Source: Lytechinus pictus
Lineage: Eukaryota
DNA: 64,000 nucleotides
NCBI RefSeq assembly: GCF_037042905.1
Contig: NC_087251.1
Coordinates: 17,796,001-17,860,000, forward strand
Reading direction: 5' to 3'
A program made the translations under genes and the position numbers. Position 1 is the first letter of the stretch, and each line of letters starts with the position of its first letter. Under the pieces are notes generated by a model. That model was not told the DNA's origin. It worked only from the letters and a program-made list of their open reading frames with translations, and did not search any database. Shown here one piece after another: positions 9,179 to 64,000 of this stretch.

Positions 9179-9822
9179 TTAACTTTCGTGAGAGTAGTTG
9201 GACTTTAATTCAAGATATTTCTTTGTGACTTTTCTCACTGAAATTCACAAGTCTGAAATGAGAATGAATGCAGTTGATTTGAATGTCAATTGCTTCCGCC
9301 TAGACAGCCCCTGCATAGAAGGATCGAAAGAGGAGCCACGTAATGAAACAATTTCTTCAATTAAGTATTACAAAAGGCTCATGGCAGTCGGTGCTTTGAA
9401 GATCATGTTAAGCTCTGTGTCTCTACCAGTACCAGACACAAGAACATGGCAAGGGGCTTGTGATGATAGAACAAGGAGAACTTGGCTCTTGAAGGGGAAT
9501 TAGACGCAGAGATAATGCATTGAGCTTGAATGATGAAATGCTGATTCTGTTTTAATTCAGTAGATCATCCAATAGCTTGACATGTTATCACTTTAAAAGA
9601 GAAAGTAGGGTTACAAAGATGAGAACCATGCAAAAGAGAGAGAGAGAGAGAATTAAAACAAGTGGAACGCCTCTGGCAGTCTCGACTGCATTACGCAATC
9701 TAATATAGCAGCAGTGCTAACTTTGAAAACTACTATAAAATAATCATTCACAAAAACATCATTCATATAATGACATAATACCACGTTCATTGACCATAAA
9801 TGACATTTGAACGGAGACTTAA

Positions 9823-10580
9823 CCCTAAATAGACTGGGCTATTTCGATGCCTAAGAAGACTGGGGGGGGGGGGCTGATTCAGCCCCCCCCCCTATGATCT
9901 CGGCCGTCGATCGCGCGATCGCGACGAAAATTGGCACACGTGTTACCCATGGCATTATCTACAAAACTATACCATCAAATTCTGCAAAAAATCTCATGTC
10001 TCATTAATTATGCTAATTTATGCGTAAAATCATAAGTTTGCTCTATTTAATAAAATAATGCCCCTGAAATGCTAATTTTTGTTTCACATACTCTAGATAG
10101 GCATCTGATCAAATTTATTAAAAAAAAATTTCAACATCACATTTATTTTCTTATGTATTCTATTGTTTTCTAAATTTCTTATGTATTTCTTTGTTTTTCG
10201 ACTTTTTTTTTTTAATTGTTTTTTCAATGGAAATTGTCGGGGACTTTATTTCGACCATAAAATAGATAAAATTAATTGAATTTAAGCAGTAAAAGGAAAA
10301 ATAATGATACATTTATGAATTTTGGTTAAAAACACTATTTGCATTGGATTTGTACACAAATTCATGTTTTTGAGTAATTTTGGGTCTGCATGCACTTACG
10401 AAATGTTGCGTGATTTCGGAACCGCGTACCCGGGGGTCACAATTTTGGTCTCAAAAGTTGCGAGAGACTTGAAGGTAAAAAGTCAGCGAGCGACGCGGTC
10501 AAAAAATTTCGCGTGGCGGATTTATCGCGAAAAATGTCGAGGGGGGGGGCTGAATCAGCCCCCCCCCAGTCTTTTTAGGG
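9823..10580. mobile_element. piggyBac-like MITE nested in the HINE-like element
   Basis: TTAA at 9819-9822 and 10581-10584. CCC...GGG termini with TIR CCCTAAATAGACTGGG / CCCAGTCTTTTTAGGG. G-run GCTGA(T/A)TCAGC C-run palindromes near both ends. Confidence 0.92.
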
Positions 10581-10619
10581 TTAAGACTGTCAACTTCACC
10601 CATGTCCACATTTCATTCA

Positions 10620-12400: not shown

Positions 12401-14463
12401 CCACTGTCTTCTCTAACTATCAGCTGGATTGAAATGTAAATCAAAAGAAGAGCAATGCAAAAGGGGGTTTTGTTTATTAGTCTATTATTTTTTTTTTGGC
12501 AGATGAAAAACTTTGAGTCCACAAAGAAAATGATTGAACAGCAACAGATTTGCTCAGAATGAGGTTATTATGCCATGTGGTAACATCTATACATTACATA
12601 CACTACATCTTTAATTGTTTTAATGAATAAATATATTGAATCACTGCATATACTGAATATTTCATATCCTCACCTAATGAAGGTGATGGATATGATAACC
12701 GAAGGTGTGTTCTTGTGATGCATCTGATAGTTGTTCACTATTGAATACATCATCTGTTATTCTCATTGCTTGTAATCCATCATTCCATAATTATATTCTC
12801 ATGATGAATATACTGTAGAGTAGGCAAAGCAGAGGCAAAGAGAAAGAGAGTGGGAGAGACAAGGGGAAGGGGGGGGGGGGGAGAAACTAGAGAGATGATG
12901 AAGAGAGGAAAGGAGAAAGGATTGAACTTGGCAAAGAAATAAAAGTCACATGTTTATCATACAAAATAAAGAGAGATAAAGACAAAGTGAGAAGTAGCAA
13001 CGCAAGAGAATAAGAGAATGGGAAGGGACATGGGGGAGATGTAGACAGAAAAAAGGTAATTGTACTTGGATGCACTGAAACAAATAGGTATAAAGGAGTT
13101 AGATTGAAACCTAATAATCACCTATGCATTTAAGATAGATGAGAGAGGTTATCTCGTTGAAAACGTTATAAAAACAAAAGCAACAATAGGAAAAGCAAAA
13201 TCTTACACAAAATGCACAAAACACTTAAAAATCATAACACTTCAGGTGTAAAGATACACCATACAGCATACCTGGTCAATTCCCAGAGAAATTTCTTTCG
13301 AACCAAACCAAGAATACTATGGGTCGATAACATGGCTCAAAATAATATTGGAAGCATCAATTATTGGGTGATACAGCGAGCCATGCAAACATGGGATGAT
13401 CATGTTATCTAGGAGACCTCTGGCAAGAAGAGATAATGCAAGGTCGGAGACAGTGAGATGGATAGATGATGCATTTAGCACCGATGCCATCCTGGATGGA
13501 GACAGAAGACAGGGAGGTGAGAAATAGGTGCCCCAGGTATGAGATGGGTGGGATGATGATGGATGTGATGGTTGCTAGGGAGAGGTGCAACAACATCACC
13601 AACCATATCTCCTCCAAGGGAAGGAGTAACACTAGATGGAGGAGAGATTTTTATGGTAGGTTATTCCAAATCAAGTTAACAAGCATACTTCTGAGGAGTT
13701 AAATGACTGTATCAATTTAGCTTGGAACCACCCACACCTTGAGTTAAACTTACAAGTTCTATGACATCAGCCAACACTCAACTCATTCCTGGTCAACGTT
13801 AGTAGAAAGAGGAAATTTGACACAGTGGAGTTGCTTCCTAAAATTGACACCATTTTTGCATCAAATTTGACTCTGCAGAAATAAGAGTGCAACAAATATT
13901 CATTAAAAAACTGCTGCACTCAACCCAGGTTGAGGAAAATGGTACTTAGTAGGGTTTAATCCTTGAATGCTTTTTTAGTTAAGCAACTCAGCTGCATCCA
14001 GGGTAATGATATACGCTCTGGAGGTAGCTCCATGCATGCACTGCACAATATCGTAAAAACCCCCATAGTATCCATGGCCTGAATGGGCCTAGAGTTTCCA
14101 TGCAATATAAATATGGAAAATATAAGTAATAGTAGAAGTATAATTGTAAAGATTGGGCATTGTAAAAATCAAGGAGATGGGAGTGACATGGACCTAACAG
14201 TATTTGAAGGTGAGAACAGATACAGAACTTTAGAGAGTGAAAAACAAGATTGCTGAGAAGGGAAACTGAGAAGGTAGCACCTTCTGCATGAGGCTCTGTG
14301 GTAACTTGAGAGATGTATGCAGCTCAGTTGTCACCAGGTCAATGCTCTCCTGTGATATCATCATGATGATAATGATGACTGATGCTGTCATATGATGAGG
14401 GTGTTGATGGTGAGACTGATGGAGGTCACTAATCACCTGGCACTGATATCATTGACATCAAAC

Positions 14464-14489
14464 CAGGGAAGTGTTATAACACTTCCCTG
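14464..14489. mobile_element. 26-bp perfect palindrome with 7-bp TSD; probable P-superfamily excision footprint
   Basis: ATCAAAC|CAGGGAAGTGTTA-TAACACTTCCCTG|ATCAAAC, with the direct repeats at 14457-14463 and 14490-14496. Confidence 0.75.
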
Positions 14490-16668
14490 ATCAAACTGAG
14501 ATGCAGACATCTTCCAGGACAGTGTATTCAGGAAGAATGATATCATTTACCATATGGTAATAAAAGGCAAGAAGGGAGTTGGTGAAGATAATATTGTGAA
14601 TGATTATGATGCTATTATTGATGTCTGAAAAGAGAACACAATCTACCTGGTAATGTTGTATTAGGTTGTAAAGTGCATGCATAATACATAATCCCCACAA
14701 ACAGAATATTAGTGCAGCAAACTTCTATTTGATAAAAAAGAGTCAGTCTCAACTTCATACACTTTTGTTTTTTATTTTTTACTTTTCAAAAGTAAAATAA
14801 AGGAGAAAGAATTCAAAGAGACTGACATCCGTACTCTGTTACCATAGATTGCAAACGTCAATATGTCTTTAAATCGGTCTGTGCATGATCAAGTTACAGC
14901 AAAGGCAAAAGCGGTGTCTGAATTATTGTTGCCGCAAACATCATGAAATCTCCAAATAGCACACCTTGCAAACAGACACCTAGAAAAAGAGAACATTCCT
15001 TGTAAACAGTGTCGGATAACCCCACAGAGCGAAAATAGTCCATATTTGAACGGCATATGGCAGAGATGATACAGCGAGCCTCTCTCCCACTGAGTAATCC
15101 ATGAAACATGAGAAACATTTCATCCCACAACGCTGTCAACACAAGCCGAAAAAGAGGAAGAAAAATGTGCACAAATAGACCAAACTTAATACCCGGTCCC
15201 TCCATTTTCGGGGCAAGGTTAACAAGTCTTAAGTATGTTTGCCATCTTTTGTGGGTGTTGACAGGAGGGTGGAGGGGGGCAGGTTGAGCAGAAGGAAGAA
15301 CATAGAAGTAACTCTATGCCTATGACTGCCTTGAACTTTCGTTGGAGGTGCAATAACCGCTAGAGCCCCGTGAAATGTGAGACCAATCTGGGTGTCGGAT
15401 CTATACCCCATGCCTAACTCAAGAATGGGAACAGAGTGATAAGGGTACATTAGATGGAAAGGCAGGCTGATATATGTCAGGAAACCTGTGACAAATAGGC
15501 AGGCGAAGAAAAGTTTAGATTTTAATAGGAGAGGTGGTTTCAGGATGTTGATTCCTTTTCAGCCCAAATTTGGGGGCCCATTTCAAGAGAACTTTCAATA
15601 TTATAATAACTTTGCCATTGTGTTACATGTCAAAGTCAAGATTAACATGGTATTTACAATGACAACAAAACTATTTTAGGCATAATAGTAAGGCTTAATA
15701 AAAACATGGACCCAGAATATAAATATTTGGTTTCCAAAAAAATAATGACAAAAATAATACCAAATTTTTATATAGCACAGATTACAGTTAAGTCTCTTAG
15801 CATAGGATTTGAAGGGACTTGTTCAACACTGCCACCCCTGTCCAGCCTTTGCTATGGAAACAGCAAAGTTGTGATCATCAAGATATTCACAAGGAAAGTG
15901 GACATATCATAAGAGGATCAGGGTTCAATGAACGTTTGGTTATTCTATATGACTTTGAGAAATATGATTTGTTAATCATTTCAAGTATTATCAGTGTACC
16001 AGTGGAAAGAAATCACTATGCATGAAAATAATATCAAATGACTTTTGAATTTGAACCTAGGACCAATTACACATCACACAATCCTTGTTGACTGATGATC
16101 ATACAGCCACAAGATCACTTCTATAAGAGCTATCATGTCTTCTCAATGTTACAAGCTACCACACCAGCTGTCAATATTCAGTTGAAGGCTTATCGCATGT
16201 ATGAAGAATATAAATGAATTGTATGTCTAACTTCCTATTCCATGTTCAAATGCAAGTATATCTGAAATTATTATTTTGTAGAAAACATGAACATAATAAT
16301 AAATGAACTAAACCCCTCAAAAAAAGTAACGCAACTCGAGTTTGAGGGGTTATAAAAATCTTATTGGCCCATCACCATATGTGAAAATGGTATCATATGC
16401 AAGCGGAATTATTCCTCTTTGCAATGATGTCATTTGTTATGTTGATTTTACCATGAGATGCGCAGTCATGATAAATGAGCAGTAATGTCAAGAACAAAAT
16501 GTTGCAAAATTCACTGTTTTCAGTAGTGAATTCATGATTGTACTGAACAGACTTGGATTGGTGTTTAACTCATTATTTCAAACATTTAAAGACAATGAAG
16601 ACACAGAAACAAATTGTTTATGTTTTATCACTTTCTTAAATTTTATTGAGAACTTCATACAACACGAG

Positions 16669-17662
16669 TCAGTAGCGGGTAGATGACCCAAACACATTAA
16701 CTACTGCATTACATCTCCTCCTCATACCGTTCACCAATCTCGTCACACGAGCCTGTGGGATGGCGTTCCACTCTTCAACCAGAATCAGGCGAAGCTCTGC
16801 TAACGTTGTATGATCAGTCACTCTCTGCCTGACAGACCTGCCAAGCTGATCCCACAAGTGTTCAATTGGGTTGAGGTCTGAACTGTTCGCTGGCCACTCC
16901 ATCCTCTCAACGCCCTCATTCTGCAAGTACTCGTTGTCATCTTGAAAGATAGCATTTGGGCCAAGATTACCGTGCAAATATGGAAGTACCACTGGTTGAA
17001 GCACTTCGTCTCTGTAGCGCTGAGCTGTCATGTTGCCATCAACAAGGATGAGTGGTGTCTTCCCCATCGTGGACATGCCTCCCCAAACCATTACACTGCC
17101 TCCTTCAAATGCTGTCACTCTGTCGACGCAACAATCAGCAAATCGCTCACCAGGACGTCGCCTGACCTTGATCCTGCCGTCAAGCTTCCTAAGACAGAAT
17201 AGTGACTCATCAGAAAAAAAGGACAGATCTCCACATCGCCTGGTTCCATCGTAAATGGTCACGGTACCAGCGCATACGGGTACGATGGTGAAGGACAGTC
17301 ATGGCAGGTCTTCTTGCAGCTTTACGGGCGCTCAAGTTGGTTGCATGGAGCCGGTTTCTGATCGTCTGATCAGACAGTCTTCTCCCGTATCTCCGTGCAA
17401 ACCTTTCTTGGAGATTTCTTGCCGATAGCCTTCGATTCCTTTATGCAGAGAGGGTGATATAGAGATCTTCCTCTGGTGTTGTCTGCTTTGGACGCCCACT
17501 TCTTGGCCTGTCTTTAACTTCCCCAGAATCAAGGAATTTGGCACTCAATCTTGAGATGGTGCTTTTGCTCACACCAAACCGGATGGCAACATCGTTTTGG
17601 GATACCCCTGCTTGGAGTTGGCCAATTGCTTGGGCCCTAAGGAGATTTGATAAGCGGGGCAT
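16669..17662 (-). pseudogene. Tc1 (DD34E-type) transposase, inactivated
   Basis: N-terminal paired-like HTH (MPRLS...VAIRFGVSKSTISRL...DRPRSGRPK) and catalytic motifs FSDES, GGSVMVWGG, FQDDN and WPANSSDLNPIEHLW. Lesions: in-frame TAA at 17441-17443, a +1 frameshift in the A7 run at 17214-17220, and about 10 codons missing after FQDDN (near 16932). Confidence 0.95.
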
Positions 17663-17730
17663 ATGGAAACCTTTTTCAAGCAACCACAAAAAAAAACACC
17701 ACAGGTTTACCTCACACAAACCAATAGTAA

Positions 17731-17893
17731 AACCTCAGTCACATTTGCTCTATGGCGGCCGTACGGCGAGTCGAAAACAGCCGTTTTAACATTTGTTGTA
17801 CCAGCTACATAATAAGTGATTTGAATAAAAATGAATAAAACGGCTGTTTTCGACTCGCCGTACGGCCGCCGTAGAGCAAATGTGACCGAGGTA
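17731..17893. mobile_element. PIF/Harbinger-like hairpin MITE inserted upstream of the Tc1 transposase
   Basis: About 57-bp TIRs, ACCTCAGTCACATTTGCTCTATGGCGGCCGTACGGCGAGTCGAAAACAGCCGTTTTA and its inverse with 2 mismatches. Flanked by TAA and TTA. Confidence 0.9.
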
Positions 17894-18873
17894 TTAGGCT
17901 TAACACACATGATTCATGTCTTTTGACTTCATCAATTACGACCTGGACAGCATTCAAACACATTTAAAGTAAGAACACAATCACATAAACATTTCTGAAA
18001 AAACAACAATATTCATCGGGGCAAAATGCAAACCCATGTGCAGATTCAAAAGAAATGCAGACTTTGGTTAAGAAACAATGCATTTTGCAACATTTCACTT
18101 CTGACTTTGCCTTATTGTCAGGTGTACTGAACATTCCTCGATTGCATAATCAGGACAATCATTTTAATCATTGTAAAGAGGAATAATGGAACTTTTCAAT
18201 GACACCACTCTCACCTTTTATAGATCAATGATAAAAAAGTTATCCTCCCTCAAACTTGAGTTGCGTTACTTTTTTTGAGGGGTTTATAATAACACTGTAC
18301 ACCTGCTAATTAGTTTATAGCTGCTATCAGGTGTTATTATCAGACACTAGATATCTAGAATAAATGCAAAGAAAATACTTCTCTGCATCTATATTGCATA
18401 ACACTTATCACACAGAAACTGTGTCAAGGACTTGATGGCTTTCCCTGAGCTCATTCTCTTTTCATCGCTGTTCTAATAAATTCGAATGTGGTGTATTTGT
18501 AACCAGAGAAGCTAACGGATGATGCTCACTCCGGTTTGAAAGTTTTATGAAGAAGCACCTGTGTCTCGGGTGACATCCTAACCTTACTTTGCAGAGGGGG
18601 CCATGGCATGGCATCGACCTACCCTCCAACAAGCTCCTAGGTCACCTTTGTTGGAACAAACTCTCATGGGAAGATAATCAGGTTAAATTGACACCTTCCC
18701 AACCATCTTTAAGGAGATAGTAAAATTGTAAAGAGGGTAACATGATGAGTCAATTGTTTGGGGAGTTAGAGACAGTCTGATGTGACATGCCATGTCATTC
18801 CATGTCATATGATATCACCTAAAAGTGTTCATTTACAGACACATTAATATTCAAAGGATTTGAATACAATCAG

Positions 18874-48474: not shown

Positions 48475-50659
48475 TAATCTATCAAAATGACAGAAGTCTC
48501 ATCCAAGTCTCTCCTCACAACCACTTTAATACTCTACTTTTCTCTCTCCCCATCTATCACACTACTTTAATTGTGGACCTCATTACACTTGTCGTTAAAG
48601 CGGTATGAGAATAGTTAGGTGAGCTATGGCTATCTCTTTCTGCCTATCAATCAGCGTGCTCCACTTAAACTCTTGGCAATGTCTGCACATTCTTTCATAT
48701 TTTAAAGCACAGATTTATTATGATAGAATTGTGAATCTTTGTCTCATGGTTTTTTATTTGCTTTCATTGAATTCATCATGATAATATATCCTATGTAATA
48801 TTGCTCCCAATAAATATCTATTCTAATATATTAAATTTTCTAACTAAAACATGTCACAAGATGGTTATATCAAATGCTTAATGATTCTTAAAATAAAGTT
48901 TTTAGGAAAGTTTAATATCTTTTTTTCTTCATATTTTGTCATCAATAAGTTGTACCAAAGACTGACTTTCTATCTGCAATTTTTATGCATCTACACGTAC
49001 AACTGGATATTCAGTAACAGATCAGTAATAATACAATTATTCTGAAATGATTATAAAATATATATGTCCAGCAAAGTCCTACAAATGTTCATGCTTCTTG
49101 TGAAACAGCGATTTCTTCACATTGCAAAACTCTGACTTAATTAAAATGCAATTTTTTTTGGGGTACATGTCCTCCTTCCTACTTAACCTCAATATTGGCA
49201 TTGTCATGGAAACACAGTTAAGAAGGAAAAGAGCATCCCATATGGGATGGCATCCCTACAGGGGGGATATCTTGCAGATAGCTTGTTAATCAGTTAATCT
49301 AATTGCATCATATCTCTACAAAACACACCCTCATCACTTTCCATCTTTATAGATATTTTGTAGTAAAACGGGAGAAAAAATGATTAAAGCGGGACATGTC
49401 TTCTCAGAAGGTGAACAGGCTCTTGTGCTGTAAAATTAGACTTGACATCTTTTATGAATAATGAAGTGCATTTTTTTATAATGATGTGTTGGCCATTTGA
49501 TCTATCAGAATCTGGAATGTTAATGTGTTTTCATCTATATGACCCATTGTAAAATCTTTGTGATGATGTAAATGGTTGATTTGGTTATTCTCCTTCTTAT
49601 GACGGTATATATTATAAGACTGCATAACCAAAATGTTACTTCGGGATAAGGACACAAGAACTGAGATTCATTCTGTCAAGGTACTGAAGCTATCTATGGT
49701 GGCTGTGGTATACTGCTTTTCACTGCAACAGGAGTATACACTTCTTTGAAGAGGTTGTTATTATACTTTCTTTTAAGAATTTTATTTTTTTCCCAGTATG
49801 GCTATTTTGGTTTATCTCTCCCTCACATACGAATAACAAGGTCGAATGTGCAGAGAAATTAACAGATAAGCGTGATTGTGATTGACCATCCATCATTCCC
49901 ATTTCAAACAAACATTTCTGCACGAGGATGTGTAGAGTATCTAAAAATCAAATTGATAAGGAATATCAAATATTCAACAACTAGAGAAACTTAAGAATAA
50001 ATCCAACCACATTGTTTTCTTGAAAATGTAAGGTTTATTACTGAATGCCCCTACCTCCCACATATTATACTGAGACATTAAAGTATCTCCTTTCCCCTGA
50101 GAAAAAAAATTGTAAAGAAAATAAATAAATACAACTTAGGCTTGATTTTTTAACAAGGGTACTGATAATGGTACCTCCCCATTTTAAGAAAGCCCAGGTA
50201 AATCTTCAAAGAATCTGTGAGTAAAATCTCCCCCTTTTTTCTCCCCGGGGGTCCAAGCTGGGATATTTCAGGCAAATCTGTGACAGAATCACATCTGCCC
50301 ATCCACTTTCACATTCTCCATTGCTAACTTTGAATTTAACATGAGTCAATGTGTGTTGACAAGATTACTTGTGACAGAAATGTGTTCTGAAACTTGGTTT
50401 GACCTTGCTCAACTTCAGATGTATGTATTGTTTAGTCCTGAAGAGGAAGGATAGAGAGAGGGTGGGGGGGGGGGTTCAAGTTCAAATTTTCTCTTATTGA
50501 GGGTCAGGGGTGAACTTCATGTTTGAAAAAGATTACCAAATTGGAGAGGGCACTGTATCAATAGGGCTTTTAAATAACTTATGACTTTGTTTATGGAATA
50601 AGAAGAGCAACACAACATCCATTGCCAATCGATTGCTATAAGAGTAGGGACACTCTGAC

Positions 50660-50683
50660 CATGGACCTACTAGTAGGTCCATG
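50660..50683. mobile_element. 24-bp perfect palindrome with 7-bp TSD; probable P-superfamily excision footprint
   Basis: CTCTGAC|CATGGACCTACT-AGTAGGTCCATG|CTCTGAC, with the direct repeats at 50653-50659 and 50684-50690. Confidence 0.75.
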
Positions 50684-52161
50684 CTCTGACTAATTGCTAA
50701 AATTCTAACAAGAGGTCTATTTCTTTGGATTGACAACTAGTTTGCAAGCACACTCTAATATGCTAAGGGTTAAGTGCACAATGCCCTTCGAGCATATTCA
50801 GACTATTTTTCAGTGAGTTTTGGCAGAGGATTTTTATCTGTAAGCTTGAGGAAGATTGCCATATATCCCCAAGAAAAATATAAATATGGGGGGAAATATT
50901 TTACCTTTTAATAATTGTTCAGGAATTCATACCAGGTCATTGCTTTGCACTCTTACTGGAATTTGTTCAAAGAGAAAGGGATCTATCTATTCCAATATAT
51001 TACAGATATTAAAGATGAGGGTGAGGAAACAGGATAAGAGCATCTCTCCTATTGAATGATATATATTCCAATCTAGTCATACAGGAAACCAGTCAGACAG
51101 AGCAGGCAGCAGGAATAAAAAGAAGCAAACAGTAATACAAGAAAAAAACATAGATACTGTATTTTCTTCTACTCTCTTCAACTATCTTTCCTCCTCTCTA
51201 ACATTTTTTTAAATTCCATCTGGTACCTGGGTTTTTCCCAAACAATGTTTTCTTCCTATAAAACTTGTCAGATAAAGAATCACAAGGGAACACCATGAGT
51301 ACATCAATCTTCTTGAGCTGTAAAGCATGCATAATTCAATGGTTTGTGCTGTTTGGGTCTTCTGGGAACAATGGTTTCTACCAGGTAAATAACAGTTGCT
51401 TTGGCAGTCCTTGAAGGTAGTATGAGACAGAGGTGAACAGGGGCACAGTGAAGTTGTCTTGAAGATCCTTGTTGATTCATCAAAGACAATAGTACCACTC
51501 TTAAAACCATGTTTGGTTCACTGGTGGGTGGGATGGTGCCTTGGATGATCAAGTACTATGTCAACTAGAGGGAAAATGACTTAATTGCATTACATTCTAA
51601 ATCTAAAAGATAGGGGACATTTGTTTGAACAAATCTGGCAAAAAGAAATAAACAATGTGGTCTCCTTACAGGTTCCAGTGTAGAGTTATGCATATCATAC
51701 AAACAGTAACATGAATAGCTCCCCCGAACCTATTCTTTATGGTAAGTGTTAGTCGAAAGGCCTAATCGAAACCAATACATCTATGATATTTTTCTTTCAT
51801 TTTCAGCTAAAGAACATGAAGGGCATAATTGCATCTTTCTCAAAGGCATTATCATCCTTTTGCTTCCAAGCATAAACATCAAAAGCACACCTTGGCTTTG
51901 GGAAGTTGGCTGGGGGCAAGAGATAATGTGTGGAAGTTAACACCCATCCATCTCATTTACCCATATACCTCTCCTACATTCCCAGGACAGACTATCATCA
52001 TCTCCATCTATCCATCTCTCATCACATACCTAGAGGGCAGGCTTGAGCAAGGTAAACCTACCTTATCACCACCAAGTTACTTTCTCAAAGCAGACAGAAG
52101 GTAGACTCATGGCCCAAAGAAGGAGAAAAGAGACTTCAAAAAAATTCTATGACAAATTTAA

Positions 52162-61804: not shown

Positions 61805-62280
61805 CAAGAGGTTTATTGTCTCACCTGCATTACACAATTCAATATAGCAGGAGTGCTGACAATGAAAACAAATGAGATGAATAATTTTTCACAGTACACA
61901 CCATTCATTTCATAATCAAATAAACAAAGTTTTAATGACCGTAAATAACATTGACCCTGATCATGTGACCAGAAACTCATGCAAAATGATCAGGGATAGT
62001 GTCTATTTTCTTAGAACTAGTGATAGATCCATTTACTTTCAAAGTTAAAATGTTAATAACTAAAACTTAACCTTGGTTAGGATTTCAATGTTGATAATAC
62101 AACATGGTCAGTGTTCTTTGACCCTAAATGACCTTTGACCTTGATCATGTGACCTGCAACTCACGTAAGATGATACTCAATTAACCTTATGTCCAACTTT
62201 CATGAATTAGGTCCACATACTTTCTGAATTGATGATGACATTTCAAAAACTTAACATTGTTTAAGATTTCAACTTTGACA
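61805..62280. mobile_element. Older, shorter copy of the HINE-like family at 9657-11744
   Basis: Shares GTCTC.CCTGCATTAC.CAAT..AATATAGCAG.AGTGCT.AC, TGACCCTAAATGACCTTTGACCTTG.TCATGTGACC and CATTTCAAAAACTTAAC. Only about 2 repeat units and no piggyBac insert. Confidence 0.85.
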
Positions 62281-63184: not shown

Positions 63185-64000
63185 CTGACAGGGCATGGCT
63201 GGTCACCTACAGTTTAAGCAACAAGGCTTGGCAGGTAAATCCCAGGCCACAATCTCCCAGCCAGGTATTGACTAATCTAAGCTACATGTATATTTCCTTG
63301 TTTGACCTAAAATTTAAGGGGCAAGGCCCTGTAGGCAAGTAATTCACAGGCCACCATCTTCCAGCCAGAATCTAGAAAGCAATGAACACTAGGTGGTTTC
63401 AAACCGCCTCGATCACAAGAATCCCCGTTAAATTACGAGAACTTTTTTAGGCTGAAAAATACCCATTAATTATTCCTGCATTCACACCGCCCTGAAACAT
63501 ACCCTTCGGGATAAGTTCCTGAAGTTACGAGCATGCGCAGTATGGTCTGATAAGCAGCAAGGCGCGAAATTCAAAATCACTAGCCCAGCAGCAACCCATG
63601 CACGGCGCCGCACCCAACGACACGCTGGGCTCAAAGTTCCCGTAATTTGCTTTCAGACCGCCAAAATACCCACGACCTTGGAAAAATCCCCGCGAAAGTT
63701 CTCGTAATTTCGCCAAGTACCTACTATTTATCGGGTATTTTCTTTCGGGGATATTACGCGTAGTTTGCTTTCAGACCGCCAAAATACCTGGTATTTTCTG
63801 ATCGGGGTAAATTTCCCGATCAGAGAATACCTGGAACTGGCGAACTTCGAGGCGGTCTGAAACCACCTACTGGGCGTGGCTGTTCACCTACAGTTTAAGG
63901 GGCAAGGACTGGTAGGCATATAATTCACAGGCCACAATATCCCAGCAGGAATCTACTAAGCCACATGTATGTAAAAAAATCTGACTGGGCATGACTGTTC
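63185..64000 (+). repeat. Diverged 100-115 bp tandem repeat, interrupted by a MITE and running off the window
   Basis: The blocks GGGC(A/G)TG, ACCTA(C/A)A(G/A)TTTAAG, CAAGG, CAGGCCAC and CCAGC recur in units starting near 63190, 63300, 63872 and 63987 (the second unit lacks the first block; the last is truncated). Confidence 0.8.
63391..63868. mobile_element. Young MITE with 3-bp ACT TSD (Harbinger-like)
   Basis: ACT at 63388-63390 and 63869-63871. TIR AGGTGGTTTCAAACCGCCTCGA / TCGAGGCGGTCTGAAACCACCT with 1 mismatch. Internal TTTCAGACCGCCAAAATACC twice. CpG-rich. Confidence 0.92.

Follow-up and report, generated by a model that had tools for sequence, protein, structure and literature searches.

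A short palindrome between 7-bp repeats as a likely excision footprint of a P-like DNA transposon

A perfect 26-bp palindrome without any spacer, bracketed by two exact copies of a 7-bp sequence, raises the question of how an inverted repeat lacking an interior came to lie inside what looks like a target-site duplication (TSD). The structure occupies positions 14457–14496 of the DNA analysed here, a 64-kb stretch of contig NC_087251.1 of Lytechinus pictus (hereafter the window). The original prediction described it as the scar left by excision of a P-like transposable element. Its letters and coordinates were verified: two 13-bp arms with CA..TG ends lie at 14464–14489 between exact ATCAAAC repeats. 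We consider it likely that this is the non-functional excision footprint of a P-superfamily-like DNA transposon of the 1360/Galileo type, with a 7-bp TSD. Its parts are the following (runs X1, X4 and X7 and metagenome loci L001, L003, L004 and L012 are presented below).

14457..14463, plus strand: left copy, ATCAAAC, of the 7-bp TSD (sequence letters; single copy in the orthologous contigs of X4, X7 and X1)
14464..14476, plus strand: left arm, the putative retained tip of the element's left terminal inverted repeat (first 11 nt common to the scars in L001, L003, L004 and L012)
14475..14478, no strand: central TATA, a proposed 4-nt microhomology overlapping both arms (modelled as an exact join of two L012-type ends, which come from another host)
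14477..14489, minus strand: right arm, the putative retained tip of the right terminal inverted repeat (palindrome detection)
14490..14496, plus strand: right copy, ATCAAAC, of the 7-bp TSD (sequence letters and read contigs)

The base composition predicts 0.0024 palindromes with an arm of at least 13 in 64 kb, where one was observed (14464–14489), and an exact 7-mer match between flanks has a chance of about 1e-4. The null model consisted of 60 order-4 Markov simulations of the window. These contained no palindrome with an arm of at least 12, and of the 110 with an arm of at least 8 none was flanked by a 7-bp repeat. In the real window, two of the six palindromes with an arm of at least 8 have such a repeat. 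The arm does not occur a third time in the window: three matches were found at two or fewer mismatches, two of which are the palindrome itself, and 2.0 are expected by chance.

Ten public sequencing runs cover part of the region 12900–16300, and four of them, one per sample, were compared over 13700–15300. Run X10 is from organism B; X4, X7 and X1 are from organism A and represent three samples from three studies. X10 is identical to the window across this stretch; it is possibly the window's own source, and hence does not constitute independent support. The orthologous contigs of organism A are about 2–3% diverged, with 20 of 611, 24 of 811 and 18 of 800 letters differing in X4, X7 and X1, respectively. 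The contigs of X4 and X7 jump from 14456 to 14490, skipping the 33 letters of 14457–14489 (26 + 7); seven letters at the jump fit either side, and the match on the shorter side extends over 147 and 220 letters. The X1 contig jumps from 14463 to 14501, with 37 letters skipped and four other letters in between, a net difference of 33. An orthologous empty site with a single ATCAAAC, proposed as a check of the original prediction, is present in three of the four runs compared, that is, in all three independent samples (X4, X7 and X1), which have one 7-mer and no palindrome. In the window 26 bp and a 7-bp duplication have been added at a site that is still empty in relatives. The insertion is young, irrespective of whether organism A represents a sister species or is conspecific and differently labelled. 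The same three contigs of organism A also hold 15 extra letters relative to the window at 14543–14545, about 50 bp downstream of the scar.

The palindrome recurs elsewhere in the same reads. In all four runs there are other contigs that match only 14456–14498 and continue as unrelated sequence (among the matches listed), including records 10–15 of X10 and record 7 of X1. The read depth in the bin containing the palindrome is 46, 341, 530 and 311 in the four runs, against 3.4, 55, 98 and 69 alongside, and the orthologous contigs of organism A add nothing to it. The raised depth reflects several other loci and is not usable as a copy number. The 26-bp form is repeated at other loci with few or no differences (records 10 and 13–15 of X10 and record 7 of X1); the last of these, 948 nt long, matches over 42 letters with two differences and no gap. 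Other copies vary in the centre: record 11 of X10 (721 nt) matches both 7-mers and has four letters fewer in the centre, and one contig in X1 and one in X7 are without three central letters (23-bp variant). Only copies whose flanks resemble 14457–14496 could be aligned, and they form a biased subset. A loose end inside the palindrome centre, expected from a full-length allele, was not seen among the matches listed, which is no evidence of its absence. At another short stretch, 13912–13975, numerous contigs of unrelated sequence align with loose ends in each of the four runs, to a depth of up to 525; it is a dispersed repeat of about 60 bp that was not detected as repeated inside the window.

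The arms were also searched for in metagenome contigs, viral sequences and prokaryotic genomes, as a pattern of two 11-nt arms with 0–30 letters between them. Twelve metagenome loci match this pattern, 10 of them distinct, and four of the 12 are flanked by exact 7-bp repeats that differ from locus to locus.

L001: 33 bp, 7-bp repeat GTGGTAG, arms 17 + 16
L003: 29 bp, 7-bp repeat ATTGCAT
L004: 29 bp, 7-bp repeat GTCTGTG
L012: 34 bp, 7-bp repeat CACAAAC, scar at 1294–1327

All four belong to the six metagenome loci with a GC content of 40 per cent or less. As controls, neither of the two viral loci (one sequence) and none of the seven prokaryotic genome loci has a 7-bp repeat. A Fisher test of 4/6 against 0/12 gives P = 0.005, for groups set after the data had been seen and with L005, L007 and L010 counted once and L013 and L014 once. 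The arms with different 7-bp flanks that had been suggested as a further check were found both in the read contigs and at the metagenome loci. Because the same arms are found elsewhere, at sites that are unrelated and carry other 7-bp duplications, and enclose centres that vary, they belong to a dispersed family and are not derived from local sequence.

In the metagenome locus L004 there is a short stretch resembling an exon of a neurotransmitter-symporter gene (Pfam PF00209, E = 1e-14). The CpG ratio is 0.60–0.76 in L001, L004, L008 and L012 and 0.32 in L003, compared with 0.33 in the window, and L001, L004, L008 and L012 share only the palindrome with the window. We infer that the metagenome scars lie in DNA of animal hosts, of which at least part belongs to another species. 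An open frame of 185 amino acids in L003 (196–750), 90 bp from the scar with its TSD, has no Pfam match; it may be a piece of an animal DNA-transposon protein.

The window contains a second, putative scar of the same architecture and of a different end family, which the original prediction did not list.

50653..50690, no strand: CTCTGAC, a 24-bp perfect CA..TG palindrome (50660–50683) and CTCTGAC (palindrome and flank scans)

The palindromes at 14464–14489 and 50660–50683 are the sole spacer-free palindromes with an arm of at least 9 in the window; eight of the first 13 letters of the second are identical to those of the first. Viral contigs scanned for the arms of the second palindrome gave no matches. 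A scan of the window allowing any terminal dinucleotide and 5–9-bp flanking repeats returned three structures, namely both scars and one TA-ended 38-mer. The latter is an imperfect palindrome at 63792–63829 flanked by the 5-bp repeat CCTGG; it could have arisen by chance, or be a mini-element or scar belonging to another superfamily.

What could leave two element tips fused between the copies of a TSD is known from Drosophila. There, P transposase makes a staggered cut, with one strand broken at the element's tip and the second 17 nt further in (PMC7776569), and junctions repaired in the germ line still have the TSD on both sides, together with no more than 17 nt from either end (PMC5466332). 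Among these junctions are 17 + 17 and 17 + 16 blunt joins as well as templated insertions; a single perfect 30-bp palindrome, which arose at an AT microhomology, turned up 3 and 9 times (PMC5466332, Tables 1 and 2). The scars described here resemble the Drosophila P excision junctions (PMC5466332, PMC7776569) in that both TSDs are kept, tips of at most 17 nt are fused without an interior, and palindromes at internal microhomology, 17 + 16 joins and apparently templated central insertions (L012 looks like one) occur. The Drosophila junctions, from the P{wa} assay, were produced in the laboratory by a known transposase, in a Rad51-deficient background and with a TSD of 8 bp, whereas the window scar has a 7-bp TSD and is inherited in a wild non-insect host, with its parent unseen. 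At the centre of L012 (1294–1327) lies a short copy of the left arm, folded back and similar to the polymerase-theta templated insertions in the Drosophila tables.

Along 17 nt, the right arm of L012 and the left arm of L001 differ only at position 12. When all joins of L001 and L012 ends were enumerated, the window palindrome was the exact product of two L012-type ends sharing 4 nt (TATA). A cut about 17 nt inside the ends fits L001 (17 + 16) and the 17-nt arm of L012, in a set of only four TSD-bearing loci and with chance matches that are also short. Up to 17 nt are preserved in related scars, so more of the end than the 13-bp arm was probably retained, and the 26 bp would be better read as 11 + 4 shared + 11.

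These observations are consistent with the following course of events. A longer element with these ends would have inserted and created the 7-bp duplication. Its transposase, if it acted as in Drosophila P biochemistry, would have made staggered cuts, at the tip in one strand and about 17 nt further in on the other, so that the outer inverted-repeat bases remained as 3′ overhangs on both flanks. End joining may then have annealed the two identical overhangs at the internal TATA, after which flaps would be trimmed and gaps filled; the product of this presumed germ-line event would be a perfect 11 + 4 + 11 palindrome between both TSD copies. Such a microhomology join would account for the perfect palindrome, and for its recurrence, without the 26-mer being mobile.

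The superfamily of the parent can be approached through the TSDs. They are 7 bp long at six sites, two in the window and four in the metagenome loci, which is compatible with the 7 or 8 bp of the P superfamily; an 8-bp flank match, the usual TSD length of hAT elements, was found at none of the scar sites examined. For comparison, 1360 has 7-bp TSDs in 274 of 279 insertions and hobo has 8-bp TSDs in 1,196 of 1,198 (PMC3276498), while the TSDs of Galileo are 7 bp long and follow the consensus GTANTAC (PMC4168063, PMC3698922). Across the six TSDs, T2/A6 (T in second and A in sixth place) is matched at 10 of 12 positions (P = 0.0004), as in 1360/Galileo, G1/C7 at five of 12 (P = 0.049), and −1 A/+1 T at seven of 12 (P = 0.054), for a pattern that was seen before it was tested, at six sites of at least two end families, with the published motif placed according to our reading of the text. 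The likeness to 1360/Hoppel and Galileo (PMC4168063, PMC3698922, PMC3276498) lies in the 7-bp TSD, T2/A6 and some G1/C7; the outer positions of the target motif differ. The accessible text of these three papers gives no excision footprints or cut depth for 1360/Hoppel and Galileo. CA-ended terminal repeats outside Drosophila are known from zebrafish Pdre2/THAP9 (13 bp in Pdre2), Anopheles P elements and P-type miniature inverted-repeat transposable elements (P-MITEs) (PMC10983969, PMC1562414). Pdre2/THAP9 and the Anopheles P elements differ by an 8-bp TSD and another end sequence, and P-MITEs keep a spacer and subterminal sequence, in contrast to the window scar, which has no interior. THAP9-like genes range from sea urchins to humans (PMC10983969).

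Several points weigh against a P-like excision scar, beginning with the limits of the motif test just given, to which is added that the outer motif positions −3/+3 match in only three of 12, with no signal. No parent element or transposase for these ends was found within the 64-kb window. CA..TG termini, present at both window scars, are not diagnostic of the P superfamily, such ends being widespread among transposons (PMC2577343), and hAT families with a 7-bp TSD exist in Repbase (PMC4455052). The 17-nt end is known from the DNA of another host, in two scars only; L003, L004, L012 and the 23-bp variant require an insertion or an end sequence beyond those of L001 and L012. The metagenome loci L002 and L008, also with a GC content of 40 per cent or less, have no TSD, and the 26-mer of L008 is identical to that of a bacterial genome locus (L027); the palindrome alone is therefore not diagnostic, and neither L002 nor L008 is counted as support. 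A ceiling of 34 bp in the four TSD-bearing loci (nominal P = 0.03) was dropped as an argument, five of seven prokaryotic chance matches being equally short.

With these points taken into account, the original prediction is partly supported, by the empty site, the dispersed arms and the Drosophila-like junction anatomy; CA..TG ends and a 7-bp TSD also occur outside the P superfamily. The insertion is transposon-derived and the scar works like a P excision footprint; membership of the P superfamily, whose defining feature is the transposase, is probable.

Other origins must be considered. A scar or an extreme internal deletion of a non-P parent, either a hAT element with a 7-bp TSD or a member of an unclassified superfamily, is unlikely, even though no transposase ties the arms to P. 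By that route, sister-chromatid gap repair following excision would have been aborted once a few bases had been copied from either end, the two being joined thereafter, and wide, asymmetric lengths are predicted; the TSD-bearing cases, although few, range over 24–34 bp and are nearly symmetric, and their TSDs follow the 1360/Galileo motif. Excision of hAT elements proceeds by hairpin formation on the flanks and yields palindromes of flank DNA with no element tips, which counts against a hAT parent; here the palindrome is unrelated to the empty site and common to unlinked loci. The 22–34-bp palindrome might itself be mobile, as a minimal non-autonomous element moved in trans that makes a fresh 7-bp duplication each time. 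The repeated 26-bp form and the lack of a visible long parent argue for this, but we regard it as quite improbable: the centres vary in length and sequence with constant tips, and a preferred microhomology remakes the same palindrome independently in Drosophila (PMC5466332). Moreover, P transposase requires internal binding sites beyond the terminal repeats (PMC7776569), and two 17-nt staggered cuts would not fit in 26 bp. MITEs are of uniform length and have an interior with subterminal sites, whereas these structures have variable centres and no interior, and range from 22 to 34 bp.

Palindromes between short repeats are prone to deletion, a property that favours an origin without any transposon: an old palindrome could have been deleted between chance 7-bp repeats in the relatives, or a local replication accident (template switch or fold-back) could have produced the palindrome, and hairpins with these arms do arise in prokaryotes without a TSD. 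This is very improbable, because the empty site holds no arm sequence to copy, the empty state is common to three samples from three studies, and a second family of the same geometry exists in the window; the recurrence of the arms at unlinked sites with other exact 7-bp repeats largely refutes it. We give still less credence to a selected regulatory palindrome, either a dimeric transcription-factor site or a hairpin RNA. In favour of such a role, the palindrome at 14464–14489 folds stably as single-stranded DNA (z = −4.8), as does any perfect palindrome; against it, the palindrome is absent from orthologous contigs only 2–3% diverged, Rfam gave no match in the window and no gene was found beside it.

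If the excision-footprint reading is right, the mechanism itself is the one known from Drosophila laboratory work; here it is met in a natural setting, with empty sites and other hosts as confirmation. Neither inherited P-type scars across whole genomes nor this end sequence was the subject of any paper found in a literature search that left Repbase and most subscription papers outside. We tentatively propose, with somewhat less than even confidence, that a 7-bp-TSD family spread over unrelated animals also undergoes the 17-nt staggered cut that has until now been demonstrated for Drosophila P, and that inherited scars allow it to be read. DNA transposon excision is normally hard to see in genomes, and such scars would provide a countable record of former P-like sites, of the cut depth of each family and of germ-line repair, including microhomology joins and templated insertions. 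Their density in the window is 2 per 64 kb (95% interval 0.24–7.2); if it holds, each animal genome may contain thousands of them or more, of a length that ordinary repeat annotation would miss. They would also give the end sequences and target preferences of families that may survive in few full copies or none, and be usable as clean presence/absence markers. It is doubtful that the commonest 26-bp form is re-mobilized by a P-like transposase, and we think it scarcely probable; were it so, this form would be among the smallest transposable units known, with ends shared between animal hosts.

The surroundings of the scar are non-coding animal-type DNA. The window is repeat-rich, with a GC content of 33–42%. 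Pfam was run on all 92 window frames of at least 75 amino acids and gave three Tc1-type transposase matches (16672–17734) and one sub-threshold match; THAP or P transposase models matched none of the 92. A search of the window for long elements with 13-nt inverted ends and 5–9-bp flanking repeats gave no candidate with these arms. The viral scan for the longer end motif gave six loci, all single ends with no partner end, which were taken as chance.

Several other repeats were observed in the window. A Tc1/mariner-type element lies at 16309–18299, 1.8 kb from the scar, with inverted ends at 16309–16364 and 18231–18286, a TA after the right tip and the left tip missing. Its transposase is on the minus strand in three frames (DDE_3, HTH_Tnp_Tc3_2 and HTH_23), and a 169-bp hairpin (17728–17896) is included within the element. 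A 764-bp element at 9820–10583 has 13-nt inverted ends and the 5-bp repeat AGACT, with two G-run/C-run hairpins inside. It is followed by a 163-bp tandem array (5.3 copies) and then by 192-bp units, reaching 11688. Related units reappear near 62 kb (61916–62258).

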